Below, in pieces: positions 132 to 17,920 of a DNA stretch of 55,184 nucleotides. Position numbers and translations under genes: made by a program. Numbering within the stretch: position 1 is the first letter of the stretch; each line of letters starts with the position of its first letter. The stretch lies in the sequence record DRR378314_499, one strand, 5' to 3'. The notes under the pieces are model-generated. The model saw only the letters and a program-made list of their open reading frames with translations. It was not told the origin of the DNA and ran no database searches.

Positions 132-481
132 GGCTCCGTCAAAGTAAACTAACCAAGCTGTTAAAGGCCAAACCAACCTCACCTATCAAGCGCATAATTG
201 CCGCCATTCAGCTAAGGCAGCTGAGCGGTGTTGTTTAAATTTATGACAACTGACAAGGTGGCGTTGATGATTGAAGAGGTTATAAACTGAAAAGTGAATT
301 GATACGAATTTCTGCAGACTTCGCATGTGCCGAAAGTACAGAATAGCATACTCTCGTCGTCGAAATGGCAAATGAGAATTCTCATATCTGTTATTTTTCC
401 AACGATCAGTTTCTTGTTTATCGACGTTACCAATAATTTTCATCGCTGCGCCCTATGGAGCTAGTTTCTGCTGACACTACC
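132..481 (-). mobile_element. IS6-family remnant (C-terminal transposase fragment, ORF 186-443)
   Basis: KNNRYENSHLPFRRRE...RSLQKFVSIH...AALAEWRQL is the IS6 DDE transposase C-terminus; IR-like ends GGCTCCGTCA (132) and GGTAGTGTCAG (481, minus). Confidence 0.85.
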
Positions 482-4812: not shown

Positions 4813-5329
4813 GGTGCTGTCAGATGATTGCGACTTCGTCTTCACATGGCGAAGATGGGATAACAGCGCCCCTACCAATGCAGCACTAAGCCGCTACTAC
4901 TCGGCAAGTACGGTGGTTCTTTGACGCTTGGAAACAAAGGCTTCCAGCATTTGGCCCTCGTGATCGACGGTACGTCACAGGGCATAAATTTCCCCATTTA
5001 TCTTCCCGGAAACTTCGCCCAGATGCCATTGCCAGTTTGGGTGACTACGGGAAGACGGATGAAGTCGTTTCTTCCGGATCTCATTGGCAAATAGGGGGCA
5101 AACCCGTTCCACCAATAGCGGACCGTTTCAGGGCAAATATCAATACCGCGTTCATGTAGCAGATCTTCGATATTTTACGGAGAAAGCGGAAATCTGACGT
5201 ATATCATCTCAGCCAGGCGGATGATCTCAGGTGAAATTTTTTGAACTAGCGAAAAGGGTTCAATTTTATCCTGAGCGGAAACTAGTCGACGTACAAATAG
5301 CCATCAAGTCATTTTCGTCTGACAACGCC
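4813..5329 (-). mobile_element. Internally deleted IS6-family element with both ends
   Basis: Imperfect IRs GGTGCTGTCAGATGA (4813) and GGCGTTGTCAGACGA (5329, minus); broken transposase SPEIIRLAEMIYVRFPLS..EDLLHERGIDI..ETVRYWWN..WQWHL..VDHEG joined to a decayed C-terminus. Confidence 0.85.
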
Positions 5330-5339
5330 ACTGAAGCCG

Positions 5340-6401
5340 CTAGTTTTCCGTCACCGCGTCCTGGAAGTTTATGGTTCCGTCTGCATTTTTCTTAAAGGCC
5401 TGACCAAAGGCATTGGAAAAAATACTGATAATACTGGACCACACATCTCCTTCGGGATCATTGAGGTCGCCTTCAAGGGGAACCCGGATGGCAAATTGAT
5501 CTTTTGGCTGGTTTTCAAACAGCTCTAACACAGCAGCTGCTATCGATTGCCACAGAACATTCAAAGGATTATCGTCTGACTGGGCGTTGGCCATTGTAAC
5601 ATTTGTTGCAACAAGTTTGACATATCCTGTCATATCGCCATCTGCAGCGGCAGTCTCGCTGAAAATACCGATGCGGCCCTTTTCGAAATCGACCGCGGCA
5701 AAGGCGCGGCTGTAATCGTTAAACGCTGTCAGCGCCGCTTCCTTCAATTCCACATTAACGTCAAAATCCGGTATGTCTTTGAAAATATTCAATTGAGCGT
5801 CAACGGTAAGCGCCCCTCCGCCGATGGAAGTTCCCGTAATTTTGACGGTTGAGGGCAAAGGCTTATCCTTATCCTTCACATTCCGTAGATTTTTCACTTC
5901 TGCGTCGATATTGTCGATGAAAAGATTAACATTCGGCTCAGCCGTGTAGTCAATATAACTGACTTTACCCCCTTGAGCAGTCAGCCGGTTTATGCCTAAA
6001 GGTGTGAGCGCACGCACGAATTTACCCCAGCCTGCACCCTCGCCTGTTTGGGTCTTTGAGAAGTTTACGTTCGCATCGTAGATATCAATTTCTCCGACGA
6101 TGGCCCCCTTGAAAAGGGCTTCCCATTCGATAGATAAATCGATCTTGCGACTGGCAAAGAAAGGCGCGTTAATTTTTTTGTCTGTTTTATGGATCTCCAA
6201 CCCATGGATCACATAAGCCCCGCGCCAAAGATGTAAATCGATACCCTCCACTCCACCGCTATAATCATCAAGAAGGGCGATCTGCTCGTTTACATAATCC
6301 TTTACCCAAAACGGCAGATAGAGTCGGACGGAGACCAAGATGGCAGCGATAATCACTACGATTCCAACTATTTTGACTTTTTTACTGTGTATATCGACCA
6401 T
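5340..6401 (-). CDS. DUF748/AsmA-like envelope protein
   Basis: N-terminal TM, RLYLP..VKDYVN, DLHLWRGAY, NQPKDQFA.RVPLEG; ATG at 6401 with AAGAGG RBS. Confidence 0.75.
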   Translation of the reverse strand: MVDIHSKKVKIVGIVVIIAAILVSVRLYLPFWVKDYVNEQIALLDDYSGGVEGIDLHLWRGAYVIHGLEIHKTDKKINAPFFASRKIDLSIEWEALFKGAIVGEIDIYDANVNFSKTQTGEGAGWGKFVRALTPLGINRLTAQGGKVSYIDYTAEPNVNLFIDNIDAEVKNLRNVKDKDKPLPSTVKITGTSIGGGALTVDAQLNIFKDIPDFDVNVELKEAALTAFNDYSRAFAAVDFEKGRIGIFSETAAADGDMTGYVKLVATNVTMANAQSDDNPLNVLWQSIAAAVLELFENQPKDQFAIRVPLEGDLNDPEGDVWSSIISIFSNAFGQAFKKNADGTINFQDAVTEN

Positions 6402-6414
6402 GGTTGATCCTCTT

Positions 6415-7284
6415 TTATTTTTTCCTGACGAGTTCGGTGGTTTTGATCCGATGTTCTCTATGTTCGTGCGTGTACGTTTTTGAAAATTCAGCACCGATCA
6501 GGAGAATTAAACAGGAATAGGAAATCCAAATCATGACGAGGATAACGGAGCTGGCAGCCCCGAAACTGGACTGGGGCTGGGCGAACAAAAAATAGAAGCT
6601 AAGGGCATGTTCACCAATTGAGAACAAGACAGTCGTTAGTAGTCCTCCATAAAAGGCAACCCGCAAATCCACCTCAACATCAGGGAGTATTTTGAAAATA
6701 AGGGTGAAAAGAACAGTGACGATAAGAAACGAGAAGGCGTTACTGAAAATGATTAACCCTTTCGCCAGATCAGGCGAGAACTGAGTTGCGAGCCATTCGC
6801 TAAAAATATTAAAGAAAGTGGTGAGTGATAGCGAAATGAGCAGCAAGAAGCCTATTATCAAAATCAGGCCGAAAGAGGTCAGCCGACTTTTCAAGAAAAG
6901 CATCCAGCCAGCTGTTTTCTTCACTTCCACATCCCAAACACTGTTCAAAGACCGCTGAAGCTGAGAAAATAGCCCTGTTGCGCCAAAAGCCAATGTCACA
7001 CCGCCTGCGATCATCGCCCAGAAATCACGGTCTTTCTGTTGCGTTTCTTCGACGATTTTCTGAACGCTTTGAGACGCGTCTCTGCCAAGCATATCATTGA
7101 TATGCCCCAGTACTTCCGATTCAACCCGTTGTTGATCAAAAAATATTGCCGCAATTGACATTATAATGATGAGGAGCCCGGGAAGAGACAGTATGGCGTA
7201 ATACGCCGCCGCCGCACTTTGCGTAAAGGGATCGTCTCTCAACCAGTTCTGTAATGTCTTTTTTAAAACAGTGATAAAAAACAT
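6415..7284 (-). CDS. YihY/virulence factor BrkB family membrane protein
   Basis: SAAAAYYAILSLP, GATGLF.QLQRSLNSVW, FGAASSVI...W..YS..ILL.GAEF. Confidence 0.9.
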   Translation of the reverse strand: MFFITVLKKTLQNWLRDDPFTQSAAAAYYAILSLPGLLIIIMSIAAIFFDQQRVESEVLGHINDMLGRDASQSVQKIVEETQQKDRDFWAMIAGGVTLAFGATGLFSQLQRSLNSVWDVEVKKTAGWMLFLKSRLTSFGLILIIGFLLLISLSLTTFFNIFSEWLATQFSPDLAKGLIIFSNAFSFLIVTVLFTLIFKILPDVEVDLRVAFYGGLLTTVLFSIGEHALSFYFLFAQPQSSFGAASSVILVMIWISYSCLILLIGAEFSKTYTHEHREHRIKTTELVRKK

Positions 7285-7387
7285 CTTCACTCCTGCACGG
7301 CGGCTTTTATCTCTTCCGATAAGTTATCCAAAACGCCCCAATTGCGCTTCAGATAACAAGTATACATCTTCAGAGGGGATTTGCAGT

Positions 7388-7579
7388 TTACCGCGTAGCA
7401 ATAATATAGACGGCATGAACAATGCCCGGTACGAAGCCAAACAGGGTCAGGATCAGGTTAATCCAGAAGTGTTTGCCCAACCCCACTTCGAGTAAGACAC
7501 CGAGTGGTGGGAGAATTACGGCGATCAGAATTTTAATCAGGTCGCTAAACAGGCTGTCATTTGTTCTTGCTAAAGGCAT
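7388..7579 (-). CDS. YqaE/Pmp3 family small membrane protein
   Basis: ILPPLGV...FWINLILTLFGFVPGIVHAVYII. Confidence 0.92.
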   Translation of the reverse strand: MPLARTNDSLFSDLIKILIAVILPPLGVLLEVGLGKHFWINLILTLFGFVPGIVHAVYIIATR

Positions 7580-7758
7580 TCTTTCAAATCTCCGCGTCTA
7601 TAGGTTCTTGTTTTAGTGCATCATCAAGCGCGTCAGTCATTTACCCGGTCGGTTCACATATCAAGACAGGCAAAGGAGTTGAAATAATCAAAAAATCCCC
7701 AAGCATTAATTTCAAAACCTTGATAGCCCATTCCCTTTGACCAACGAATATGGCCACT

Positions 7759-7783
7759 AACAACCGAACGGCAATTTAGTTCC
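7759..7783 (-). promoter_or_regulatory. ECF promoter P1 (towards pmp3-yihY-DUF748)
   Basis: GGAAC-taaattgccgttcggtt-GTT(agt). Confidence 0.7.
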
Positions 7784-7877
7784 CAATTTTTTTAAGATTT
7801 TTATTCTGCGGTCGGGAATAGACTAATCATACAGGTGCATCCCCATCGTTGCCTAGGTTTGGAGCCGGCAATTGGTT

Positions 7878-8879
7878 TTAGCTAAGGAGCGTCTGATCTT
7901 TGGTTTCAAGTTTCGGTTTCTCGGCTTCCGGGTCAGCACTGCTAATCTCGATTTCCGAAGGTACAGGTCCAGCCTTTACGGCTTCCTTGCCCTCACCTGG
8001 TGGATTAGTCTCCTGCGGATAACCGGAGCCGGCATTTCGAAAGTAAATCAGCTGAGGATCCGTTGGATCAATCTCGTTGGCCTCGAAAGCCTCTTTTATG
8101 GCTTGCACGACGCGTGAACGGGAAACGACTTCTGCCGATCTTTGGGAATGGATCCACCAGCGTAATTTTATCCCGAGTGAGGTGGCTCCCAATTCCCAGC
8201 ACAATATTTGGGGCGCCGGATCTTTCAGAACTTCGTCGATCTGGCTGAGGGAGGAATTTATGATCGTCATTATGAAGCGAATATCATGCTCATACCCGAC
8301 GGTAAGATCAATTTCCACCCGCCGCCGAAGTTGCGATGTTTGGATGGTCACGATGTTGGTATATATGGTCGTGTTGGGAACAACGATATCCCGTCCATCA
8401 AAAGTCTGGATGATCGTTGCGCGCGGCTCGATGCGCAATACTGTTCCTTCCGCCGTATCGACTTTGATCTGATCCCCGCGCCGGAACGGCGTCCGCAGCA
8501 ATATCAACAATCCGGCGAGCCAGTTCTGGAGGATATCTTTAAAGGCAAAGCCGATCGCAAGGGACCCTAAACCAAAGCTTGCGAGAAGATCGACGGGCTT
8601 AATAGAGGGAATAATAATCGTGATTGAAACCATAAACCCGACAAAAACGAAAGCCCAAAACGTGAAGCTTGCGAGAATTCGACCGAGATCGATACGATCC
8701 TTCCTCTTAAAATAAGCCGCAACCGATTTGCTAAGGCCCAACCCTATAAACCCGATCAGGATAAAGGCGACAGTTCCAACAATCATGGTCGGCAGGAGGG
8801 TGTAGAAATCATTGCTCCACCCCTGGATCGTGCCCAGAGCAAGGGTTACACCGTCTGTAAAGGTTGGATCACTTGCCAT
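7878..8879 (-). CDS. MscS family mechanosensitive channel
   Basis: Three TM segments, GLGSLAIGFAFKDILQNWLAG, PFRRGDQI, EGTV, VVPN. Confidence 0.92.
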   Translation of the reverse strand: MASDPTFTDGVTLALGTIQGWSNDFYTLLPTMIVGTVAFILIGFIGLGLSKSVAAYFKRKDRIDLGRILASFTFWAFVFVGFMVSITIIIPSIKPVDLLASFGLGSLAIGFAFKDILQNWLAGLLILLRTPFRRGDQIKVDTAEGTVLRIEPRATIIQTFDGRDIVVPNTTIYTNIVTIQTSQLRRRVEIDLTVGYEHDIRFIMTIINSSLSQIDEVLKDPAPQILCWELGATSLGIKLRWWIHSQRSAEVVSRSRVVQAIKEAFEANEIDPTDPQLIYFRNAGSGYPQETNPPGEGKEAVKAGPVPSEIEISSADPEAEKPKLETKDQTLLS

Positions 8880-8938
8880 TTCGCCTTCTCAATATTCCTT
8901 AATCGCAATTTTTCAGGATTGATTTTTGATAATCAACT

Positions 8939-8963
8939 AACAACATATTGACGAGAAAGTTCC
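8939..8963 (-). promoter_or_regulatory. ECF promoter P2 (mscS)
   Basis: GGAAC-tttctcgtcaatatgtt-GTT(agt). Confidence 0.8.
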
Positions 8964-9058
8964 ATTTCCGCGCTAGTGCTTTTATGTCAAACTACCTGTT
9001 TATGGTAAATTTGTCCCCATGTGAAGCAGGAACTCAGCTCCGAAATGGGCTATTTGAG

Positions 9059-9083
9059 GGAACTATTTCGCTTCCAATTAGTT
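9059..9083 (+). promoter_or_regulatory. ECF promoter P3 (hypothetical gene and mgtC)
   Basis: GGAAC-tatttcgcttccaatta-GTT(ggt). Confidence 0.8.
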
Positions 9084-9118
9084 GGTTGTCAGGCTGTATT
9101 TACGAAAGGAACAACGTC

Positions 9119-9394
9119 ATGAGTACTGTACCAAAGACCGTGGAAGAAATGTTGGCCGACCCCGCCGCTGCCTTTAACACACCGCAAGATGTCTTCGATA
9201 ACAAAGATCTCGGCGAACATGAAAAAAGTGAAATTTTACGCACCTGGGAAGAAGATGCGGAAGCTCTTCTGCGCGCTGAGTCCGAAGCCATGGACGCGCC
9301 AGAGAATTCATCCCGTGCGCCACAATTACTTAAGGAAATTTCCAACTTAAGGTTGAAATTGGATAAACTACAGAAAGAAAAAGATGATCGCTGA
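9119..9394 (+). CDS. Conserved-looking hypothetical protein, 91 aa
   Basis: AAAGGA RBS, ATG at 9119; DPAAAFNTPQDV...EK.EILRTWEEDA...A.SEAM pattern; overlaps the mgtC start. Confidence 0.7.
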   Translation: MSTVPKTVEEMLADPAAAFNTPQDVFDNKDLGEHEKSEILRTWEEDAEALLRAESEAMDAPENSSRAPQLLKEISNLRLKLDKLQKEKDDR

Positions 9395-9896
9395 TCTGGA
9401 GTTCGGCCTTACCTATATCTCGTGGCAGGAACTTTTATTGCGGGTCGGACTGACAATGGCTTGCGGCCTCATATTGGGGCTTGAAAGAGATACTAAAAAC
9501 AAGCCAATTGATTTTCGTGCGTATATGGTTATCGCGGTTACAACCTGTATGTTGGCCGTTCTGGGGCAAGAGGTTTATGCCGATTTTGCCTCGGCCAAGG
9601 AGATCGCAAGAGTTGATCTTGCCAGCATTATTGCGGGTGTTATGTCGGGAATAGGGTTCCTGGGCGCGGGCGCGATCATACATCGGGGTGATAATCGCGT
9701 GATTGGCACCGCCACAGGTGCGAGTATCTGGGCTTCCGGGGGCATAGGTTTGGCCATCGGATTTGGAATGTATAGCCTTGGTATTGTAGCCTTTTCGGCC
9801 ATTGGCATAATTTTGCTGGTCGGAGGTATTATTAGAAAACGGTATGTTGGTACAGGGGGCCCGGATAGCGAGGAAGAGTTTTCCACAGACCAATAG
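9384..9896 (+). CDS. MgtC/SapB family membrane protein
   Basis: GLILGLER, GIGFLGAGAII, TGASIWA.G.IGLA.G.G. Confidence 0.92.
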   Translation: MIADLEFGLTYISWQELLLRVGLTMACGLILGLERDTKNKPIDFRAYMVIAVTTCMLAVLGQEVYADFASAKEIARVDLASIIAGVMSGIGFLGAGAIIHRGDNRVIGTATGASIWASGGIGLAIGFGMYSLGIVAFSAIGIILLVGGIIRKRYVGTGGPDSEEEFSTDQ

Positions 9897-9969
9897 CTGA
9901 GATCCCGTTTTCCTGGCGCAAGTCAGAATAAAACAATCTAATAATGATATTGCTTTAATGCAGAAAAGT

Positions 9970-10008
9970 TGGGAGCGCCGCACATCATATGCGGCGCTCC
10001 CATTTTTT
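9970..10008. terminator. Intrinsic terminator between convergent mgtC and csbD
   Basis: TGGGAGCGCCGCA-7nt-TGCGGCGCTCCCA followed by T run, A run upstream. Confidence 0.8.
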
Positions 10009-10214
10009 TAGGATGCTTGATCTTTTTCAAATTCAGCAAACATGGTTTCGGCTTCATCTCTGGTGACTCCGTAATTTTCCTGGATCTTTCCTAAGAAAAT
10101 TTCACGGTCACCATTTATTTGATCCAGATCATCATCTGTCAGCTTACCCCATTTTTTCTGGGCCTCGCCTCTGATCTGTTTCCATTTACCTTTAATAATA
10201 TCTTCGTTTACCAT
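10008..10214 (-). CDS. csbD: CsbD family stress protein
   Basis: NEDIIKGKWKQIRGEAQKKWGKLTDDDLDQING. Confidence 0.95.
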   Translation of the reverse strand: MVNEDIIKGKWKQIRGEAQKKWGKLTDDDLDQINGDREIFLGKIQENYGVTRDEAETMFAEFEKDQAS

Positions 10215-10246
10215 CTATTTGTCCTTCCCAGATTGCGCCAACAGGC

Positions 10247-11077
10247 TCAGTTAGCATCTGATTTGTATTTGGTGATTAACGAGGATTTCTTTTGGGGGAG
10301 TGTAACTTTATAATCCTCATCGTCCATTTTGACGAGCTTCGCGTTATCGTAAGCCAAGCTGATTTCTTCACCGCCGAGCCCTAAAATTTTGTCAAACTCA
10401 ACGATCAAGTGGCTGGCTTGACCATTTTTAAAGGTGACGTCACCGACATCGCCCAAATTTTCACCTTTCACGTTCACAAGCTTGGCACTTAGAAGCTTCT
10501 CAACGCTGTAGGCATTTTCAGGCATCATGCGGACATTCTCACCCATTTCTTGTCGATCAAAGGAAAATTCTGCCGCGCGTTCGATAGCTGCTTCAGAAAT
10601 TGGCATCATGATATCGCCTTCAGGGCCCATTTTGACCATTGTGTCATAATCAAAGGCTGCCAGTTTACCCATCCCAAAAAAGTCACCGTCGCCGACAATC
10701 ACCATTTTGGCTTTCCCGTTCTGATCAAGGATGATGTCCTTTACGACACCGACGCGTTCGTCTTGAGCGTTATAGACGGGCTCACCGATAATGCCCTCTG
10801 CCGTAGCCTTGGTATTAATTTTGGCGTTTTCAATATCGAGCTTGTCATCATTTTCACTGAAGACAAATGCTTTGAAATCTTTGTAAAACGCTTTCGTGGC
10901 GTCCGCGGTATCGGTGGCGGCTTTGTCAACCGCATCTGTGGTTTTCTCCCAACCCTCTTTCACTTGCTCTTTGGCTTGTTCAGTTTTGCTTTCGTCCGCC
11001 TTTGCAGTTCCAGCAAGCGCGGAAGAAACACTCATAAGGGCGATGATCGATACCGTTGTTAAAATTTTCTTTTTCAT
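10247..11077 (-). CDS. Secreted protein with two PRC-barrel domains
   Basis: Signal peptide; IIGEPVYN..ERVG.VKDIILD and LLSAKLVN..GENLGDVGDV repeats. Confidence 0.8.
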   Translation of the reverse strand: MKKKILTTVSIIALMSVSSALAGTAKADESKTEQAKEQVKEGWEKTTDAVDKAATDTADATKAFYKDFKAFVFSENDDKLDIENAKINTKATAEGIIGEPVYNAQDERVGVVKDIILDQNGKAKMVIVGDGDFFGMGKLAAFDYDTMVKMGPEGDIMMPISEAAIERAAEFSFDRQEMGENVRMMPENAYSVEKLLSAKLVNVKGENLGDVGDVTFKNGQASHLIVEFDKILGLGGEEISLAYDNAKLVKMDDEDYKVTLPQKKSSLITKYKSDAN

Positions 11078-11121
11078 GTTTCAATCCTTTTTTGGGTGCA
11101 TAAAAACTTACACATAGGACA

Positions 11122-11146
11122 AACAGCGAATACCGGAAAAGGTTCC
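11122..11146 (-). promoter_or_regulatory. ECF promoter P4 (PRC-barrel gene and csbD)
   Basis: GGAAC-cttttccggtattcgct-GTT(tgt). Confidence 0.8.
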
Positions 11147-11154
11147 AACCTTCT

Positions 11155-11179
11155 GGAACTTTCCGTAACTCGGTGTGTT
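11155..11179 (+). promoter_or_regulatory. ECF promoter P5 (PA2169-like gene), back-to-back with P4
   Basis: GGAAC-tttccgtaactcggtgt-GTT(ggt). Confidence 0.8.
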
Positions 11180-11227
11180 GGTAGAAGTATCGAAACCTAG
11201 TGAACTCAAAATGAGAGAAGGCAAATT

Positions 11228-11713
11228 ATGCCAAAAACGGCAATAGAAATGCTAAATGATCTCATCGTCACCTGTGAGGACGCGCGCGAATTTTATGTCA
11301 AGTTGTCGTGTCGGACAAACAGTCGGGAGTTGAGGGAAATCCTTCTAAAAGTGGTGTCAACTCATGAAAGCACCATTATTAACCTGGAATCCCATATCGA
11401 CTCATTGGCGGAAGGCGCGGGGCAGGATACGGACATATCGGGTCGGCCTTCGACTATTTTCAAACATCTGTTATCCGTGATTGATAGTACGGATCTTGTA
11501 TTGACAGAGTATCTTGAGGCCGCAGATAACGAAGCCCTTGAGCGGTTTCAAAAGGCGCTTGAAAGTGAGCCGCCTGAGGAGACCATAAATTTAATTGAGC
11601 GGCAGGCCAAAATCCTCAGCCAAACCCAATCCCACTCAAAATTTGTGAAGGACAGTCTACAGAAAGACCGTTCAGGAACAGGCCCCTTGATTAAGAAGCG
11701 GTCGCAGCGATAA
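11228..11713 (+). CDS. PA2169/DUF2383 ferritin-like four-helix bundle protein
   Basis: IEMLNDLIVTCEDAREFY, L..HI..L, ALERFQKALE pattern. Confidence 0.7.
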   Translation: MPKTAIEMLNDLIVTCEDAREFYVKLSCRTNSRELREILLKVVSTHESTIINLESHIDSLAEGAGQDTDISGRPSTIFKHLLSVIDSTDLVLTEYLEAADNEALERFQKALESEPPEETINLIERQAKILSQTQSHSKFVKDSLQKDRSGTGPLIKKRSQR

Positions 11714-11746
11714 AATAAAGTAAGAGTATAAATTTTATCCGTTTTT

Positions 11747-11974
11747 TTGGCCAGTTTAATTCCGTTTAAACCCATTGCGCATCGTGATGTTAGGGTGTTT
11801 GATTTTGCGCGCCTGCAATTTGCAACAATTTCGATCATCACAACTCTTTTTGTGATCACACTATTGCCGATGAACTGGCTGAGCCTGGCTTTCATCGCGA
11901 TGTTGCTTGTAACTGTTGTTCGTCAAACTTCCTGTGTTGTGCGTCTATTAAGCTTCACTCATGGGGTAAGCTGA
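11747..11974 (+). pseudogene. Possible N-terminal fragment of a membrane-anchored endonuclease/exonuclease/phosphatase (YafD-like) gene
   Basis: VRVFDFARLQ followed by two hydrophobic segments resembles the RxFDFPRxQ N-terminus; catalytic domain absent. Confidence 0.45.
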
Positions 11975-11975
11975 A

Positions 11976-12194
11976 CTATTTGTTTGGAACATTAGCTGCC
12001 GCAATGCGTTGCGCTTCTTCCATATTTCCGGCGGTACCACTGGCTACGATGGTGCCGTGTATCGCGACCCCCCAATTCCAAATTTCTGCGGATTGCTCGA
12101 AATCCGGGGATGGCTCGCAATCTGCTTGCTGTTGCTCCACAATTAATTCGTACTCACCTAATTCTGTACAAAATTTTTGAGGGATCCAATCCAT
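11976..12194 (-). CDS. Hypothetical protein, about 72 aa
   Basis: ORF MDWIPQKF...WNWGVAIHGTIVASG.A..MEEAQ; purine-rich leader; alternative start at 12242. Confidence 0.55.
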   Translation of the reverse strand: MDWIPQKFCTELGEYELIVEQQQADCEPSPDFEQSAEIWNWGVAIHGTIVASGTAGNMEEAQRIAAANVPNK

Positions 12195-12343
12195 ATTTCT
12201 TTCTTCCGCAAAAACCCCAACGGGTTTAGTTAAAATATTCATTCAAGGCTAATTATTTCAGAATTGAGAGGCGAAGGGAAGTAGGCTTATTATTACTAAC
12301 CCCTTGGAGTCGCAAGTGAACGGGCGGATAAAGTGTATTTTTT

Positions 12344-12378
12344 AAAAAATAAACCCGCCTGTTTAAGGCAGGTTTATT
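12344..12378 (-). terminator. Terminator downstream of the DUF883 gene
   Basis: AATAAACCCGCCT-gttta-AGGCAGGTTTATT with adjacent A run. Confidence 0.65.
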
Positions 12379-12460
12379 AAGTCTCAACGGGTGCAACAGA
12401 ATACCGGACAAAAAGGTCTAATTTGCTTCAGGTACCTGCCCGCAACGTCGGTTTTAACCT

Positions 12461-12748
12461 TTAGTTGCGGCTCCGCATCAGAAGGCTTGTCAGAAATCCG
12501 GCGGCAAAGGCGATGACGATGCTCTGACCGGGTCTTTCTTTGACTCTGTCTTCTACTTTTTCAAGACCCTGAGCTCCATGGTCTTTTAGTTCACCAAGTC
12601 TTTCTTTGGCTTTTACCCCGAGGCTTTCTGCTTGATGGATGCCGTCACGCTTAATGCTATCCGTAAGTTCGGACAAGTGTTTTTTTACCGCTGCAAGATC
12701 CTCTTTCAACTCGTCAATTTCAGGATTAGTTTCAGCAGACTTAGCCAT
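12461..12748 (-). CDS. DUF883 (ElaB/YqjD) family membrane-anchored ribosome-binding protein
   Basis: ELKEDL, VKERPGQSIVIAFAAGFL C-terminal TM. Confidence 0.88.
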   Translation of the reverse strand: MAKSAETNPEIDELKEDLAAVKKHLSELTDSIKRDGIHQAESLGVKAKERLGELKDHGAQGLEKVEDRVKERPGQSIVIAFAAGFLTSLLMRSRN

Positions 12749-12782
12749 TTTAAAACTCCTTCTCGTTTCATGTGAATTTACA

Positions 12783-12807
12783 AACAGATAAAGAAAGAAA
12801 AAGTTCC
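12783..12807 (-). promoter_or_regulatory. ECF promoter P6 (DUF883)
   Basis: GGAAC-tttttctttctttatct-GTT(tgt). Confidence 0.8.
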
Positions 12808-12825
12808 CCGGCTAAGGTTCTAGCC

Positions 12826-13542
12826 CTAGTCAAGCGGCGTGTACATATAGCCGACACCTCGCATGGTCTTGATAAGTTTAGAGCCGTCTTCACCAAGTTT
12901 TTTGCGAATGCGGCCTATTTGTATATCGATTGCGCGATCATAAATATCATACTCGCCGTCTCGGGTCCGTTCGAATAATTGCTCTCGGCTCAGGGTTCGT
13001 TTGGGCGCCTTTACCAAAGCTTCCAGCAACTGAAATTCGCCGATCGTGATCTCGATGGATTTGCCGTTTCCATCAAAAACCTGATATTGATCGCGATCCA
13101 GAGTGAATTTGCCAAAGGTAAGGGTTTCAGTCTCGTTCTCGACACCGGTCGTTGTCGGCTGATCCATTTTAATTTCCCGGACCCGCCTTATCGCAGCCTT
13201 GATCCGCGATTTTAGCACTCTCAGTTCAAGAGGTTTTGTCAGATAGTCATCGGCTCCAACTTCCAAGCAAATGATTTTTTCCGTGACATCATTTTTTTCG
13301 GTGACGACGAATATATGTGCAGATGTGGACTGTCGAATAACACGGATAAGGCTGACTGCATCCATATCGGGGAGCGCAAGATTAACCAAAATAATATCAA
13401 TGTTACTGGTTTGAACTAGCTCCGAGGCTTCTGAGCCGTTTTTCGCCGTGATAACAGCGTAACCTTCTGCTTCGAAATATTGCGTCAGCATGCCCCGGAA
13501 TCCTTCATCGTCATCGATTGACAGGATCGAACCCCTATTCAT
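12826..13542 (-). CDS. OmpR-family response regulator with Asp-to-Asn phosphoacceptor substitution
   Basis: Receiver SIDDD...IILVNLALPDMD...GADDYLTKP plus winged helix DRAIDIQIGRIRKKL...TMRGVGY; ATG at 13542 after AAGAGG. Confidence 0.9.
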   Translation of the reverse strand: MNRGSILSIDDDEGFRGMLTQYFEAEGYAVITAKNGSEASELVQTSNIDIILVNLALPDMDAVSLIRVIRQSTSAHIFVVTEKNDVTEKIICLEVGADDYLTKPLELRVLKSRIKAAIRRVREIKMDQPTTTGVENETETLTFGKFTLDRDQYQVFDGNGKSIEITIGEFQLLEALVKAPKRTLSREQLFERTRDGEYDIYDRAIDIQIGRIRKKLGEDGSKLIKTMRGVGYMYTPLD

Positions 13543-13593
13543 CCTCTTTATCTCCATTTCGAAAACGAGGACCCAATCGGCCTCATACAATAA

Positions 13594-13620
13594 TGTTACA
13601 AACTATTTCACGATTGTTAC
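13594..13620. promoter_or_regulatory. TGTTAC direct repeats 21 bp apart, candidate OmpR-type operator
   Basis: TGTTAC at 13594 and 13615 with TTTCAC between, in the divergent regulator/sigma intergenic region. Confidence 0.45.
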
Positions 13621-13701
13621 TCAGGGGAAATTCCCCGGTTAAGTCGTTCAAATAGCCTCCTTTTATACGTTTAAAAAGCGTCCTAAAAAAGGAGTAGGCA
13701 A

Positions 13702-14193
13702 ATGTTTAACAATCAAGAATTGACCAAAGAAATGATCGGTCTCAGGAGTTTTGCGCGCCGACTCACCCACAACAACCATGACGCAGATGACTTGCTTCAG
13801 TATACGCTATTGAAAGCGATTGAAAAGAAGCACTTGTTTCAAGAAAATACAGACCTTTTCAAATGGACATCGAAGATCATGTACAATCGTTTTGTTTCTG
13901 ATTACCACCGTAAAGCAAAATATGAAACGAAATTTGATCCGGAAAGCTTTCTGAAGGCTGAAACAATAGATCCACCGCAAGTTAAGCAAATTGAGATGAA
14001 TGATGTGAATGAGGCCATGAAAATGCTGTCCCCTGAGCATTGGGAAATTCTCGTTCTGATATGCGTCCAGGATCTGAGTTATCAGGAAGTCTCTGAGTTT
14101 CTGAAAATCGCAATTGGTACGGTTCGCTCCCGCCTTTCGCGCGCGCGCGGGCAACTACAGCAGCTTCTTGAAGCCCCAATAGTGGTGAATTAA
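13702..14193 (+). CDS. ECF RNA polymerase sigma factor
   Basis: Region 2 LRSFARRLT..DADDLLQ..W...IMYN; region 4 LSYQEVS..L.I.IGTVRSRLSRAR; AGGAG RBS. Confidence 0.95.
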   Translation: MFNNQELTKEMIGLRSFARRLTHNNHDADDLLQYTLLKAIEKKHLFQENTDLFKWTSKIMYNRFVSDYHRKAKYETKFDPESFLKAETIDPPQVKQIEMNDVNEAMKMLSPEHWEILVLICVQDLSYQEVSEFLKIAIGTVRSRLSRARGQLQQLLEAPIVVN

Positions 14194-14252
14194 ATATCCT
14201 TTTTGGAAATCTGGTTTCCATATCCTTGGAGTTTCTCAAAAACCTAGTATGA

Positions 14253-14290
14253 AAAAATAACGGCGCTTCAGTTGAAGCGCCGTTATTTTT
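14253..14290. terminator. Bidirectional terminator
   Basis: Perfect 18-bp inverted repeat AAAAATAACGGCGCTTCA-gt-TGAAGCGCCGTTATTTTT. Confidence 0.88.
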
Positions 14291-14331
14291 AATCTGCTCA
14301 AACCAACAGTTCGAGTTCCGAAAATTAAGAC

Positions 14332-14508
14332 TTAGATCCGCGGCCCGCGGCCTCTAACGACGTGTACGATAGCGCCAACCACGAACAGAACTATGAAGAC
14401 CACAAATATGATTTGTGCAATTCCTGCGGACGCAGAAGCAATCCCGCCAAAGCCAAACACTGCAGCAACCAGTGCAATTAATAGAAATGTTATTGCCCAC
14501 CCTAACAT
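14332..14508 (-). CDS. DUF1328 family small membrane protein (58 aa, absent from the ORF track)
   Basis: [44 protein letters not shown]...; AGGAGAG RBS. Confidence 0.93.
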
Positions 14509-14545
14509 CAGGTCTCTCCTTTAACTTGTTTCATTTAGAGATACA

Positions 14546-14570
14546 AACGACGTTGTGTCTGAAAAGTTCC
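14546..14570 (-). promoter_or_regulatory. ECF promoter P7 (DUF1328)
   Basis: GGAAC-ttttcagacacaacgtc-GTT(tgt). Confidence 0.82.
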
Positions 14571-14675
14571 CGGAGATTTAAATTTTGTTCAAATTCATTC
14601 AGCATAGCCGGTTGTCAAAAATAAGTGATGTGGTGGGCCGTTGATAATTTGATGCATAGGCTATACAGTTGAGAC

Positions 14676-14858
14676 ATGAATTTTAATGGTTTTGAAGAAG
14701 AAGACATTCAAGAGTATGTGGACAATCTGCTGACACCGAAAGAGGCGCGGCGCATAGAAACTGTTATTTCCGCGAACCCTGAGGCCCGAGACTATTATTT
14801 AAAGCAACTGAGGCAGAAGGAATTGCTTAAAGCCTGGTGGAAGAATTCACAGAATTAA
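14676..14858 (+). CDS. Small soluble anti-sigma-domain-like protein (60 aa)
   Basis: EEDIQEYVDNLLTP.EARRIE..I..NPEA resembles the cytoplasmic N-terminus of RsiW/PrtR-type anti-sigma factors; no TM or sensor domain. Confidence 0.6.
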   Translation: MNFNGFEEEDIQEYVDNLLTPKEARRIETVISANPEARDYYLKQLRQKELLKAWWKNSQN

Positions 14859-14923
14859 GGACAGGATCCCATACTTCGCTACATCCGCATTACATTTCCA
14901 TAGCAAAATACTTCTTATTGTAC

Positions 14924-14948
14924 GGAACCAAATGGACTGTCAGTTGTT
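14924..14948 (+). promoter_or_regulatory. ECF promoter P8 (AI-2E gene)
   Basis: GGAAC-caaatggactgtcagtt-GTT(ctt). Confidence 0.75.
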
Positions 14949-14972
14949 CTTTTATGAAAAGGACGTTCCGTA

Positions 14973-16061
14973 ATGCAACAAGCTAAAAAATTAAAACCTG
15001 AAACGCTGCGTGTTGCCCAGGAGCGTAGAAGCAGCATTGAAGCGGCTGTAAAACTGTCAGTTATTTTTGTTGGGCTTTTTGTATTTGTCGCAACACTACA
15101 TTTTTCCAAAATCATTCTGTCCCCAATTTGTCTTGCGATCATCATCGGGATAATGTTCGGTCCGATTGCGGATCGGATAGAAAAATATCGAATTCCTGCG
15201 TCCCGATCGGCCGCTATCGTTGTTTTACTGTTTATGATCCTTGTTATCGCCGCGATATCTGCATTTGCTGGTCCCCTGTCGACTTGGATTGATCAATTAC
15301 CGAGAATTTGGGCAAGATTGCGTTTTGAGCTCGCCAGTTGGCAGGACACTCTGGCATTGATCACAGATCTGCAGTCCCAGTTGAAAAGTGTAATGAGTCA
15401 GGAGCAAGGGGTAACCGTTGTCGTTGACGATGGTTCTGCCGTTGAGGAGGCCGCTGTCCTCGCACCCACGATTGCAGCACAAATTATCCTTTTTCTCGCG
15501 AGTTTCTATTTCTTTGTCGCCACTCGTCACAGTCTCCGGCACGCTATTTTGAGTTTACCGATCAAGCGGAAAACCCGTTGGAATATGGCGCGGGTTTTCC
15601 GTGAAATTGAAAATAATGTGTCTGGCTACCTGCTTTCCATCACCCTCATAAATCTTGGCATGGGGTTGTGTGTAGCTCTGGCATTATGGTTTTTGGAGAT
15701 ACCTTCGCCGCTACTTTGGGGTATGCTCGCCGCGGTGCTCAACTATGTCGTCTTCATTGGCCCAGCCGTCACATTTGTTGTCCTTCTTGGGGTTGGCCTG
15801 ACCAGCTCAACCGTCCTGTGGGTTGCGGCTGCGCCAGCTCTCGTTTATTTAGCCATAAACCTTCTGGAGGCACAGATTGTAACACCACTGGTGATTGGCC
15901 GCAAAATGACCTTGAATCCATTTATAGTGTTCCTTGCCATCGTGTTCTGGATTTGGCTCTGGGGGCCACTCGGCGGGTTCATCGCTGTGCCGTCGCTTCT
16001 GATCCTTTTCGCAATATACAATCAGATGCTTGTCAAACCGCAGAAAGCCAATGTCCGCTAA
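14973..16061 (+). CDS. AI-2E family transporter
   Basis: Multi-TM; YLLSITLIN, LWGMLA..LNY, LNPF.VFLAI.FW.WLWGP.GG. Confidence 0.9.
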   Translation: MQQAKKLKPETLRVAQERRSSIEAAVKLSVIFVGLFVFVATLHFSKIILSPICLAIIIGIMFGPIADRIEKYRIPASRSAAIVVLLFMILVIAAISAFAGPLSTWIDQLPRIWARLRFELASWQDTLALITDLQSQLKSVMSQEQGVTVVVDDGSAVEEAAVLAPTIAAQIILFLASFYFFVATRHSLRHAILSLPIKRKTRWNMARVFREIENNVSGYLLSITLINLGMGLCVALALWFLEIPSPLLWGMLAAVLNYVVFIGPAVTFVVLLGVGLTSSTVLWVAAAPALVYLAINLLEAQIVTPLVIGRKMTLNPFIVFLAIVFWIWLWGPLGGFIAVPSLLILFAIYNQMLVKPQKANVR

Positions 16062-16239
16062 CATTGCCATACGGGATGCTAGTCAATTCCAGTTTCTCCC
16101 AAATAAGGCCCTGCAATTTAATATTATATTAGAGTAGAATGTTAAAGTCGTCACGGAGAACTCATCTGAGGAATATCAGATCGCGAGAGTGATGTCAGGA
16201 ATATCCGCTCAAATGCATTGAAAGTGAGTTAATTGCGAG

Positions 16240-16683
16240 ATGCTTAATGACGATGAACCAGCCTTCAAGCCTATAACGTGGAATCATGTATTCGAAATGG
16301 GGCATTCAGCCGTTGATGCTGACCACCTAAGCCTTGTCAAAAAGACGAACACGCTTCTAGAAATGATCGCTCTAGAGTCCGGCGCTGGGACCGGGCCAAT
16401 TATTTCATTGGTAAAGGCGATGCGAGAAGATTGTTATCAGCACTTCGTTTGTGAAGAGCAAGTAATGCAGATGTTGGATTTTGTGGGAATGAACGAACAT
16501 ATCAAGGAGCATCGTCGGGTCGAAGGAGTGATAGACGGCATCCTTGACCGATTGAGAGAGTTACCGGAAGGGGGACCTGAATTTCGAGAACTCGTCCTGA
16601 CCTTTCGGATGTGCCTACTTGACCATATGCTCCACTATGATCTGAAGTATAAATCTCACTTTATGAACTCAGCTGGTTATTGA
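16240..16683 (+). CDS. Bacteriohemerythrin family protein
   Basis: W...FEMG..VDADH, HF..EE..M, H..EH, H....D di-iron ligand pattern. Confidence 0.85.
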   Translation: MLNDDEPAFKPITWNHVFEMGHSAVDADHLSLVKKTNTLLEMIALESGAGTGPIISLVKAMREDCYQHFVCEEQVMQMLDFVGMNEHIKEHRRVEGVIDGILDRLRELPEGGPEFRELVLTFRMCLLDHMLHYDLKYKSHFMNSAGY

Positions 16684-16725
16684 AATGGGCGACTGAACGT
16701 ACCCAACGCCTTGATCCTGTTTTAT

Positions 16726-17178
16726 TCATTGCTCGGTACACATAAGCCGGACTGCTTCCTTGAAAACATCCGCATGACCTCTTGCCTCATCCAACCCAAT
16801 ATGATTGTGAGCAATATTTGTTGCAATCTCAGGTGGATATTTGCCGTGACGACATAGGCCGTAGTCAATACCCAAACCTCCAGCTATGTATGATGGCATA
16901 TCAATACCTGCACCAAAAAATAGCGGATCTTTTGTTCCATGAAACGCCATCAAACCTTGGCCTAAATATGACTGCATATAGTAGCCAACCCAGTATCCAT
17001 CGAAAGCCAACGGATGTCCTACGAATATGCGTCGACAATTATGCAACCGCACAAATTCTGCAAAACGACTCATCGCAACATATGTAGAAACAGCATTTTC
17101 CGTTATAGCTTGCTAGATTTCGGGTTTAGGTCCATCCGTCTCAATATCCACAAAAAATTACCGGGTTTCTTCAGTCAT
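16726..17178 (-). pseudogene. DEDD 3'-5' exonuclease pseudogene
   Basis: AAGGAG RBS, MTEETR*FFVDIETDGPKPEI*QAITENA in frame with ...FVGHPLAFDG...HIGLDEARGHA; two stops and an apparent internal deletion. Confidence 0.75.
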
Positions 17179-17351
17179 GAAGGCTCCTTTGAGATCATTT
17201 TTTCGTACTATTAATATTCAGAAGACCAGAGAATATCAACTTATGACAATGGTCGAGTAATATTCCAAAGTTTCTTCCGTTTTTTTCATTACAGGCCCAA
17301 TGAATGGCGCTGCCAGGCGAATGAGAACAAGTCTGTTGTAGCTTCATGCGC

Positions 17352-17402
17352 GTTTCTGAATGGAAGTGGAAGTTCAAGTCTTCTCCTGGTCACCAAGCTC
17401 TC
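17352..17402 (+). repeat. att core copy 2 (degenerate tRNA-Leu 3' half)
   Basis: GTTTCTGAATGGAAGTGGAAGTTCAAGTCTTCTCCTGGTCACCA vs tRNA 29-72: 41/44 identical. Confidence 0.92.
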
Positions 17403-17920
17403 ACGTAATTGAAACATAAGTGATTTATCTCACTTAAAACTGCCTTGATTTGCACATATAAATCAGGCTGTTGTTGTTTTAAGATCAAGCTGAGACCCAA
17501 AATAGCTTCCCTACTTTAAGTTGTCGGGTACGCAAGCTTAAGCGGGAAAATACTTCCTTAGATTTTTAACTTCCCAACATCAATCTTCCACATGCTCTGC
17601 CAAGGCACTCCTCGGCGGACGCGGCGGCGATATCTTCAGTATGGCCAAACCGGTACGATATGCTCTAGAGGTGATTTGTGCTCCGTCCTTGCTTAAGGGC
17701 CTCATTATCGCATTTGCATAAGTGAGGGTTTATGGTTCACCTTAGCATTGAAGGGATTAGGCGCGGCGCTGCGAGAAAACATTCTGACCTTACCCAAGGG
17801 CGGTTTGAACGGTTCAAACTGCGGGCAGGTGGGTTATTGCACATTTGCCCAGATGGGCGGGGCGACCGTGCCTTAAGGAAATAAACGTAACAACATACGG
17901 CTAACCGATACCAATTCCTG

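Follow-up and report, generated by a model that had tools for sequence, protein, structure and literature searches.

A probable sigma factor regulon of eight clustered GGAAC-N17-GTT promoters in a Sneathiella-like bacterium, with control apparently unlike the PhyR-NepR switch

The PhyR-NepR-EcfG partner switch is treated as a hallmark of stress signalling in free-living Alphaproteobacteria. Its sigma factors form group ECF15 of the extracytoplasmic function (ECF) sigma factors, with Methylobacterium EcfG1, Caulobacter SigT, and Sinorhizobium RpoE2 as examples. A different arrangement may be encoded in sequence record DRR378314_499, of which a stretch of 55,184 nt was analysed (the window, meaning this whole stretch). 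Eight copies of the motif GGAAC-N17-GTT lie there between positions 7759 and 14948, in a gene island that also encodes an ECF sigma factor (13702-14193). Judged from sequence comparison, the eight motifs of this marine, Sneathiella-like bacterium are probably promoters that make up an ECF sigma regulon, read most likely by this local sigma factor and controlled in a way that does not resemble the PhyR-NepR switch.

The island has much in common with PhyR-NepR-EcfG systems. It shares their promoter architecture of GGAAC, 16 nt, and (C/T)GTT, the island sites carrying T, C, or A before GTT. It also shares their targets, namely CsbD, PRC-barrel, DUF883-like, DUF1328, MscS, and other small membrane proteins, families that are typically under the alphaproteobacterial general stress response. 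In both cases, promoters are clustered around regulator genes, and the island sigma is similar to PhyR-linked EcfGs (63-90 bits). The control parts, however, are different. PhyR and NepR are missing from the genomes of island relatives (10 and 5 genomes, respectively), the island regulator is of the OmpR type with a DNA-binding domain rather than a sigma mimic, the adjacent kinase in the relatives is a CHASE3-PAS-HisKA hybrid instead of an HWE/HisKA_2 kinase, and the candidate anti-sigma factor appears to be of the anti-sigma domain (ASD) type. Moreover, the island sigma stands outside the canonical clade and has no self-promoter in 12 Sneathiella-type regions, its regulon is confined to one island, and a KG(T) tail follows the GTT.

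Another close group is ECF26 of Alpha- and Betaproteobacteria; the supplement of PMC7826278 describes S. meliloti RpoE1 and RpoE4 as examples. According to this supplement, ECF26 sigma factors are autoregulated and their anti-sigma factor, encoded at position +1, has one membrane helix and a zinc finger; the -35 and -10 elements are given there as GGAAC and CATT for ECF15 and as GGAATAAA and GTT for ECF26. The label "ECF26-type" is used below on the basis of gene context and of this supplement, not of an ECF Hub assignment. Like such systems, the island has a putative anti-sigma domain, that of the 60-amino-acid (aa) protein as60, homologous to the N-terminus of ECF26-type anti-sigma factors, a sigma about equally similar to ECF26-type sigmas (59-89 bits), and a GTT in the -10 element. 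Unlike them, as60 is a soluble protein of only 60 aa with no zinc motif and is not encoded next to the sigma, the -35 element is GGAAC and not GGAATAAA, there is no autoregulation, and the regulon is of the general-stress type.

The third point of comparison is SigE-CseABC of Streptomyces coelicolor (group ECF39), where a two-component system drives transcription of the ECF sigma gene (PMC7826278; bioRxiv 10.1101/2019.12.11.873521). There, as in the island, an ECF sigma gene without a promoter of its own type has genes for an OmpR-family regulator and a kinase next to it, and the proposed logic, in which the regulator sets the sigma level, would be the same, for the island on the grounds of synteny and putative regulator boxes. 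Phylum and sigma group are unrelated, and the island additionally has an anti-sigma-like protein. Group ECF246, combining a DNA-binding regulator with an anti-sigma factor, was dropped as a relative, being a group of Leptospira and Paenibacillus in the supplement of PMC7826278. A search of a limited collection of papers returned no description of this sigma island system.

The motif GGAAC-N17-GTT is found 10 times in the window, against 1.54 expected (standard deviation 1.18), a number reached by none of 100 dinucleotide shuffles; nine of these matches fall within 7759-14948. The original prediction, made from the letters of the window, had put the chance expectation at about 0.2 matches in 7.2 kb, which is arithmetically correct, and an exact pattern search returns its eight sites with the coordinates and strands it gave. 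All of them are, as claimed, intergenic and aimed at gene starts, with 24-59 nt from GTT to the start for seven and 179 nt from the site at 7759 to the Pmp3 gene. No site with a spacer of N15, N16, N18, or N19 occurs in 7000-15200, so the spacing is exact and of promoter length. On a position matrix trained on 70 exact sites of 11 Sneathiella loci (L001-L011), window sites excluded, the eight sites score 15.2-29.0 bits and the runner-up position in 55 kb scores 9.6.

The count of eight exact matches in 7759-14948 was nevertheless one short, as a ninth, at 11986-12010(+), had been overlooked. It reads CGTT and lies antisense in the 3' end of an 88-aa open reading frame (ORF) at 11976-12242(-). 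It was rejected as a promoter, being outside the 30 best matrix scores and having no exact plus-strand counterpart beside this ORF (hyp88) in L002-L011, and is probably a chance match. The tenth match of the window, at 35454(-), was rejected as well, since it stands inside a phosphoenolpyruvate carboxylase gene with a matrix score of 6.8.

The island is conserved in relatives. Orthologues of the sigma are 69-81% identical in 14 loci, mostly labelled Sneathiella, and 46-63% identical in Micavibrio-like and other alphaproteobacterial metagenome-assembled genomes (MAGs). The kept gene order is DUF883-like gene, regulator, sigma, [kinase], DUF1328 gene, and as60. The 70 exact motif sites of the 11 Sneathiella loci (2-8 per locus) stand, as judged by eye, largely before orthologous genes, and 39 Micavibrio-like loci (585 kb in total) contain 79 sites where uniform composition predicts about 18. 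At least two motif sites occur in 33 of the 53 loci holding a sigma orthologue. Three MAGs labelled Sneathiella with 58-59% GC (L012, L013, and L014) encode a sigma of 69-72% identity that adjoins the DUF883-like gene; no regulator lies beside it, and each of the three has a single motif site per 20 kb.

The scope of the regulon was assessed in five Sneathiella genomes with the extended pattern GGAAC-N16-YGTTNGT and the reversed pattern as control. This pattern has 8 matches in G001 (control 4), 6 of them in the island, 7 in G002 (control 4; 6 in the island), 6 in G003 (control 3; 4 in the island), 8 in G004 (control 1; 5 in the island), and 7 in G005 (control 5; 5 in the island). The shorter GGAAC-N16-YGTT is not enriched genome-wide in G005, with 88 matches against 104 for the control. 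As the extended matches are mostly in the island and the short pattern is unenriched, the regulon appears to be a small, local one, in contrast to canonical EcfGs, whose regulons are dispersed. On the complete Sneathiella chromosome G005, a second mini-island (L092, G005:C1:4224000-4228000) lies 40 kb from the main one and contains DUF1328, a copy of as60 with an internal TGA, AI-2E, and Pmp3; its flanks hold the two extended-motif matches outside the main island, and no others occur outside in this genome.

The -10 element had been described as a non-canonical TGTTnGT, and the substitution of TGTT for CGTT as the mark of a sigma other than canonical EcfG. The counts behind this description are right: T precedes GTT in six of the eight sites (the sites at 9059 and 14546 have A and C), and nGT follows it in seven (all except 14924). 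The interpretation of the T does not stand. When all 79 exact sites of the window and the 11 Sneathiella loci are counted, with chance sites among them, GTT is preceded by T in 43, C in 31, G in 3, and A in 2, and in the 79 sites of the Micavibrio-like loci, C leads with 39 over 27 T. The DUF1328 promoter has CGTT in the window and TGTT in L002, whereas the DUF883-like promoter has TGTT in the window and CGTT in L007. Orthologous promoters thus exchange T and C between species, and TGTT is not a shifted specificity. The EcfG motif is given as GGAAC-N16-CGTT for R. etli (PMC3892343) and as GGAAC-N17-20-GTT for S. melonis, with TGTT among the targets of the latter in Table 1 of PMC6599016.

What follows GTT looks more distinctive. 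In the window and Sneathiella sites, the first base after GTT is G in 34 and T in 33, the second is G in 72 of 79, and the third is T in 71 of 79; upstream, the base next to GGAAC is T or C in 77 of the 79, and a T-rich stretch comes after it. The Micavibrio-like sites keep the G at the second base (61 of 79) and show no conservation at the third. Canonical phyR loci, of which a small sample of divergent promoters was judged by eye, show no such GTT-KG(T) tail, and the bases after CGTT vary there. Since these bases vary at canonical loci and T and C are swapped before GTT, it is the tail, and not the T, that looks like the lineage-specific part of the -10 element, and this much of the description as non-canonical is retained. 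The KG(T) tail provides a concrete hypothesis for how the promoters of the island sigma could be kept distinct from those of related ECF sigmas.

The candidate reader of these promoters is an ECF sigma factor of 163 aa (13702-14193(+)) with Pfam sigma-70 regions 2 and 4 and a PhyR_sigma2 match of 28 bits. Its best solved match, over the full length, is 5uxx_A (E 1.8e-23), an entry named only "RNA polymerase sigma factor" that is presumably Bartonella quintana EcfG; a canonical NepR query matched 3t0y_B and 2lfw_B and not 5uxx, so that 5uxx is not confirmed as an EcfG-NepR entry. Compared with 13 sigmas adjoining PhyR in other Alphaproteobacteria, the window sigma scores 63-90 bits for 12 and 40 bits for the 13th, and it scores 59-89 bits with 10 ECF26-type sigmas, which precede membrane anti-sigma factors. 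Among NCBIfam models, PRK12511 is its best (110.5 bits), followed by PRK12546 (107) and PRK12547 (102). Canonical EcfGs score highest, with 150-190 bits, for PRK12546, PRK12547, and related models, whereas PRK12511 gives the top score, 121 and 144 bits, with both of the ECF26-type sigmas that were scanned.

A tree built from 50 sigmas groups the island type (n=20) in a clade with supports of 100/99, the PhyR-linked EcfGs (n=13) in one with 100/96, and the ECF26-type sigmas in one with 89/84. The three clades join in an unresolved three-way split, apart from the other ECF sigmas of Sneathiella; an earlier tree that contained no ECF26-type sigmas had placed the island clade as the sister of EcfG (90/74). 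By this phylogeny, the window sigma is not a canonical EcfG and belongs to a clade of its own beside EcfG and ECF26-type. In all five Sneathiella genomes, it is the sole sigma of its kind, the next one scoring at most 38 bits, and the only PhyR_sigma2 match is the sigma itself. The earlier proposal of a cognate sigma other than canonical EcfG, plausibly the one at 13702, keeps its conclusion, as this sigma is the best candidate and stands in a separate clade, and loses the TGTT rationale on which it was founded. The sigma at 13702 most likely reads the eight promoters, which would imply recognition of GGAAC(T/C)TTT-N12-YGTTKG(T), with elements like those of EcfG at -35 and -10, extended by a further conserved tail.

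A second island-type sigma paralogue, of 51-52% identity, is encoded in some Micavibrio-like MAGs (loci L041, L042, L043, L047, and L052). Its neighbours, which share one strand with it, are genes for an OmpR-type regulator, OmpA, a CBS protein, DUF1328, and a CsbD-like protein. There is no PhyR near these paralogue loci, and four of the five have no exact motif site.

PhyR was searched for with the model NF006623, which is above cut-off in a Caulobacter control; all first-look candidates were scored. It is above cut-off in none of five Sneathiella and five Micavibrio-like genomes, three of these being complete chromosomes. Partial matches in these relatives cover either the receiver part or the sigma-like part, never both, and a canonical PhyR protein used as query returned one receiver-domain match and nothing else. 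A tally of PhyR over the whole class (at least 17 of 121), for which 19 candidates per genome were scored, was set aside as evidence. The NepR Pfam model PF18557 is above cut-off in none of the five Sneathiella genomes. Within the 55-kb window, there is no PhyR, and no small ORF is found upstream of the sigma.

These searches bear on the possibility that the motifs are ordinary EcfG promoters, read by a canonical EcfG under PhyR-NepR control from elsewhere in the genome, and that the local sigma is an extra paralogue of the same or overlapping specificity, comparable to the second EcfG copies of Rhizobium etli and Sphingopyxis. The motif does fit the published consensus of R. etli (PMC3892343) and S. 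melonis (PMC6599016), the targets are classic general-stress families, the remaining genome of the window organism may encode such an EcfG, and extra ecfG copies with no neighbouring phyR or nepR are common according to PMC3892343. Nevertheless, none of the five Sneathiella genomes, one of them a complete chromosome of 4.36 Mb, has PhyR, NepR above cut-off, or a second sigma above 38 bits, and PhyR is also absent from the five Micavibrio-like genomes. In addition, the lack of genome-wide enrichment (88 against 104) is unlike a dispersed EcfG regulon, and the local sigma lies outside the canonical EcfG clade. A canonical EcfG as reader is therefore unlikely.

The candidate anti-sigma factor as60 (60 aa, 14676-14858(+)) appears to be a soluble, minimal anti-sigma-like domain, devoid of zinc ligands and membrane segment. 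It is present in 28 of the 53 related loci, many of the other contigs ending before it, and has the consensus DIQALVDNEL...NP...RY..L..QK.LL..WW. No Pfam domain (including NepR) and no solved-structure match was found for as60, and its homologues are all unnamed; the as60 profile misses the solved NepR chains, whereas a canonical NepR used as control matches 3t0y_B. The profile does match the first ~50 residues of frames of 253-424 aa, with E from 1e-7 to 1e-9. Two such frames were checked, and both follow immediately on ECF sigma genes in other Alphaproteobacteria; one of the frames has a weak zf-HC2 match, and the sigmas upstream match PhyR_sigma2 at 47-74 bits. From these matches to the N-termini of larger frames, as60 resembles an anti-sigma domain from which everything after it has been removed. 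It has no HxxxCxxC motif and nothing follows the domain, and, going by its length alone, there is no room for a membrane helix.

The top Atlas feature cluster of as60 is "anti-sigma factor family" (0.96). A model of the sigma-as60 complex scores 0.76, compared with 0.01 for the best control; 51 of 78 solved complexes and 2 of 108 mismatched pairs pass the mark used for such models. Between runs, at least 72% of contacts are shared, the partner has a predicted local distance difference test (pLDDT) value of at least 75, and the modelled contacts involve only residues 98-156 of the sigma, with residues 8-18 and 43-58 of as60. Class I ASD proteins bind region 4 (and region 2) of their cognate ECF sigma through a helical domain at the N-terminus. 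The model supports a proposed binding of as60 to the sigma as an anti-sigma factor, which would hold the sigma by its region 4. Upstream of as60, a sigma-70-like site (14641-14669(+), TTGATA-17-TACAGT) ends 6 nt before the start codon, a gap that would imply a leaderless or nearly leaderless mRNA.

The origin of as60 raises a further explanation, namely that the local sigma is in effect of the ECF26 type with a membrane anti-sigma factor reduced to the cytoplasmic part. Any likeness to general stress systems would then be convergent or superficial, and the regulator would be unrelated to control. The N-terminal matches of the as60 profile to frames of 253-424 aa, two of which follow PhyR_sigma2-matching sigmas, agree with this, as do PRK12511 as best model for both the window sigma and two ECF26-type sigmas, the three clades left unordered by the tree, and the GTT of the ECF26 -10 element in the supplement of PMC7826278. 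Yet the -35 element here is GGAAC(T/C)TTT and not GGAATAAA, as60 is not at position +1 and has neither membrane helix nor zinc motif, no autoregulatory promoter is present, and the island sigmas (100/99) fall outside the ECF26-type clade (89/84). Regulator and sigma also remain paired in 40 of 53 loci, where the box array is confined to their intergenic region, and an origin in the ECF26 type is accordingly considered improbable.

This regulator is an OmpR-type response regulator (12826-13542(-)) with the Pfam domains Response_reg and Trans_reg_C, starting at MNRGS by orthologue alignment and divergent from the sigma; a divergent OmpR-type regulator is found no more than 400 nt from the sigma in 40 of the 53 loci. 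It matches the CseB NCBIfam model at 157.9 bits, which is among its best matches and under the cut-off. Alignment of 12 regulator-sigma intergenic regions reveals four direct (A/T)TACA boxes, with spacings of 11, 21, and 22 nt, all on the sigma strand. The array is kept in Sneathiella and in several Micavibrio-like loci, and does not recur elsewhere in the respective 20-kb loci or the 55-kb window. These boxes are proposed as the binding site of the OmpR-type regulator, which by synteny may set the transcription of the sigma gene and of its own gene. In most relatives, a 751-aa CHASE3-PAS-HisKA-HATPase_c-REC hybrid kinase is encoded between sigma and DUF1328, and would feed the regulator, which in turn would set sigma transcription through the four phased boxes.

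In the window, this arm has changed. Of the array, one box pair is intact (ATACA-N6-TTACA, 13585-13600(+)), and boxes 3 and 4 are degenerate (TTACT and TTAAG). The hybrid kinase gene is missing between sigma and DUF1328 in the window and in L006. Finally, at the phospho-site of the regulator (~13390), the Asp found in all 40 orthologues (LLDL, LMDL, or LLDK) is replaced by Asn in LVNL. With the kinase absent, Asp changed to Asn, and two boxes degenerate, the window seems to have a two-component arm that is disabled, in decay, or rewired.

The idea that the motif is the operator of a DNA-binding regulator such as this OmpR-type neighbour, invited by the short inverted repeat AAC...GTT and by the response regulator gene in the island, is very improbable, as each of the eight sites is oriented alike towards its gene, with a start 24-59 nt away, the motif is asymmetric (T-rich after GGAAC, KGT after GTT), the spacing is fixed at promoter length, and the likely boxes of the regulator differ in sequence and are restricted to the stretch between regulator and sigma.

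Several observations weigh against an ECF sigma regulon that is read by the local sigma and controlled otherwise than by PhyR and NepR. Shuffled windows yield matrix scores of up to ~22 bits (2 of 20 shuffles), and it is therefore the cluster, and not any single site, that is beyond chance. Several ECF groups use GGAAC at -35 and GTT at -10, the supplement of PMC7826278 giving the ECF15 and ECF26 elements quoted above, so the motif alone cannot name its sigma. No GGAAC-type promoter precedes the sigma gene in the regulator-sigma intergenic region of the window and of the 11 Sneathiella loci; such a lack of an own-type promoter in 12 regions is unusual for ECF sigmas and removes the usual argument from self-regulation for pairing a sigma with a motif. 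A scan for sigma-70-type promoters, with 16 sites against 14.2 expected, was uninformative and flagged none before the sigma gene. The as60 gene is two genes away from the sigma, outside its operon, and has no matching promoter, and the complex score may reflect likeness to solved complexes of sigma and anti-sigma factors, the model having been run without the alignments of this analysis. The comparison of the tail with canonical loci covers few promoters judged by eye. The absence of PhyR is that of 10 related genomes, and a PhyR-NepR-EcfG set may exist elsewhere in the window organism. Moreover, the window regulator has Asn in place of the phospho-acceptor and lacks a neighbouring kinase, so two-component control may not work there at all.

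Taken with these points, a regulon of the local sigma is still the probable reading. The eight promoters would drive eight transcription units with at least 11 genes, for small envelope and stress proteins, and in related genomes the regulon would be almost wholly confined to the island. A broader proposal, which is tentative, is that Sneathiella and a set of Micavibrio-like Alphaproteobacteria run a general-stress-type response without PhyR-NepR, based on a third sigma lineage, a 60-aa anti-sigma factor, a pair of CHASE3-PAS kinase and OmpR-type regulator that sets expression, and KG(T)-tailed promoters, with the whole regulon in an island of ~8 kb. If this is true, such a PhyR-less circuit would represent either the state of the alphaproteobacterial stress response before PhyR or a replacement of it, and the window would be a further step in which the two-component input is lost. 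The same promoter type and targets under other control parts, namely a cut-down anti-sigma domain and an ordinary two-component pair, would offer a natural experiment on the origin or replacement of a circuit. The compact set of eight promoters, one sigma, and one small anti-sigma factor would also be easy to test in vitro and could serve as an orthogonal kit of sigma, anti-sigma factor, and promoter.

The individual promoters, with distances counted from GTT and matrix scores in bits, are numbered along the window. Promoter 1 (7759-7783(-), GGAAC-N16-TGTTAGT, 24.1) precedes a degenerate lipoprotein ORF (~7641-7724) and then Pmp3 (7388-7579). Its GTT is 34 nt from the point where four relatives begin a small lipoprotein ORF, and the arrangement of site, small ORF, and Pmp3 is kept in L006, L007, L009, and L010. 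In these loci, the lipoprotein gene is intact and encodes ~45-50 aa with a signal peptide and an LSAC lipobox; the remnant between promoter 1 and Pmp3 in the window (7641-7724(-)) has ATG changed to ATC, 21 nt deleted, and an early stop.

Promoter 2 (8939-8963(-), TGTTAGT, 23.4) lies 59 nt before an MscS-type channel gene (7878-8879, Pfam MS_channel), and an orthologous site precedes MscS in L011. Promoter 3 (9059-9083(+), AGTTGGT, 20.8) is 35 nt before a 91-aa hypothetical gene (9119-9394) that overlaps MgtC (9384-9896, Pfam MgtC); the orthologues are preceded by sites in L006-L011. Promoters 4 and 5 stand back to back. The former (11122-11146(-), TGTTTGT, 28.9) is 44 nt before a PRC-barrel gene (10247-11077) followed by CsbD (10008-10214; Pfam PRC and CsbD) and is kept in L002-L011, and the latter (11155-11179(+), TGTTGGT, 22.2) is 48 nt before a gene for a four-helix bundle of the DUF2383/PA2169 family (11228-11713; Pfam and NCBIfam). 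The pair is exact in L002, L003, L005-L007, L009, and L010, whereas L004 and L011 have the PRC-side site only. Between the convergent MgtC and CsbD genes, a perfect GC-rich hairpin of 13-15 bp with T-runs on both strands (9970-10002) looks like a two-way terminator.

Promoter 6 (12783-12807(-), TGTTTGT, 29.0) is 34 nt before a 95-aa gene (12461-12748) and is kept beside it in L001-L011 and in many Micavibrio-like loci. The product of this gene has no Pfam match and is presumably DUF883/ElaB-like, the label used above. Promoter 7 (14546-14570(-), CGTTTGT, 23.8) lies 37 nt before the DUF1328 gene (14332-14508, Pfam) and is kept in nine of the 11 loci L001-L011, including L006 and L008-L010, and in Micavibrio-like loci. 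Promoter 8 (14924-14948(+), TGTTCTT) is the weakest with 15.2 and stands 24 nt before an AI-2E transporter gene (14973-16061, Pfam AI-2E_transport); orthologous sites precede AI-2E in L001-L004. Families like these targets are included in the list of EcfG targets of Sphingomonas melonis (PMC6599016).

No Rfam family was found at E 0.1 or better in 5000-17500. The remainder of the window is an ordinary alphaproteobacterial chromosome, with a fragment of an IS240-type DDE transposase (85 aa, the end of the domain only) near its left end, at 186-443(-).

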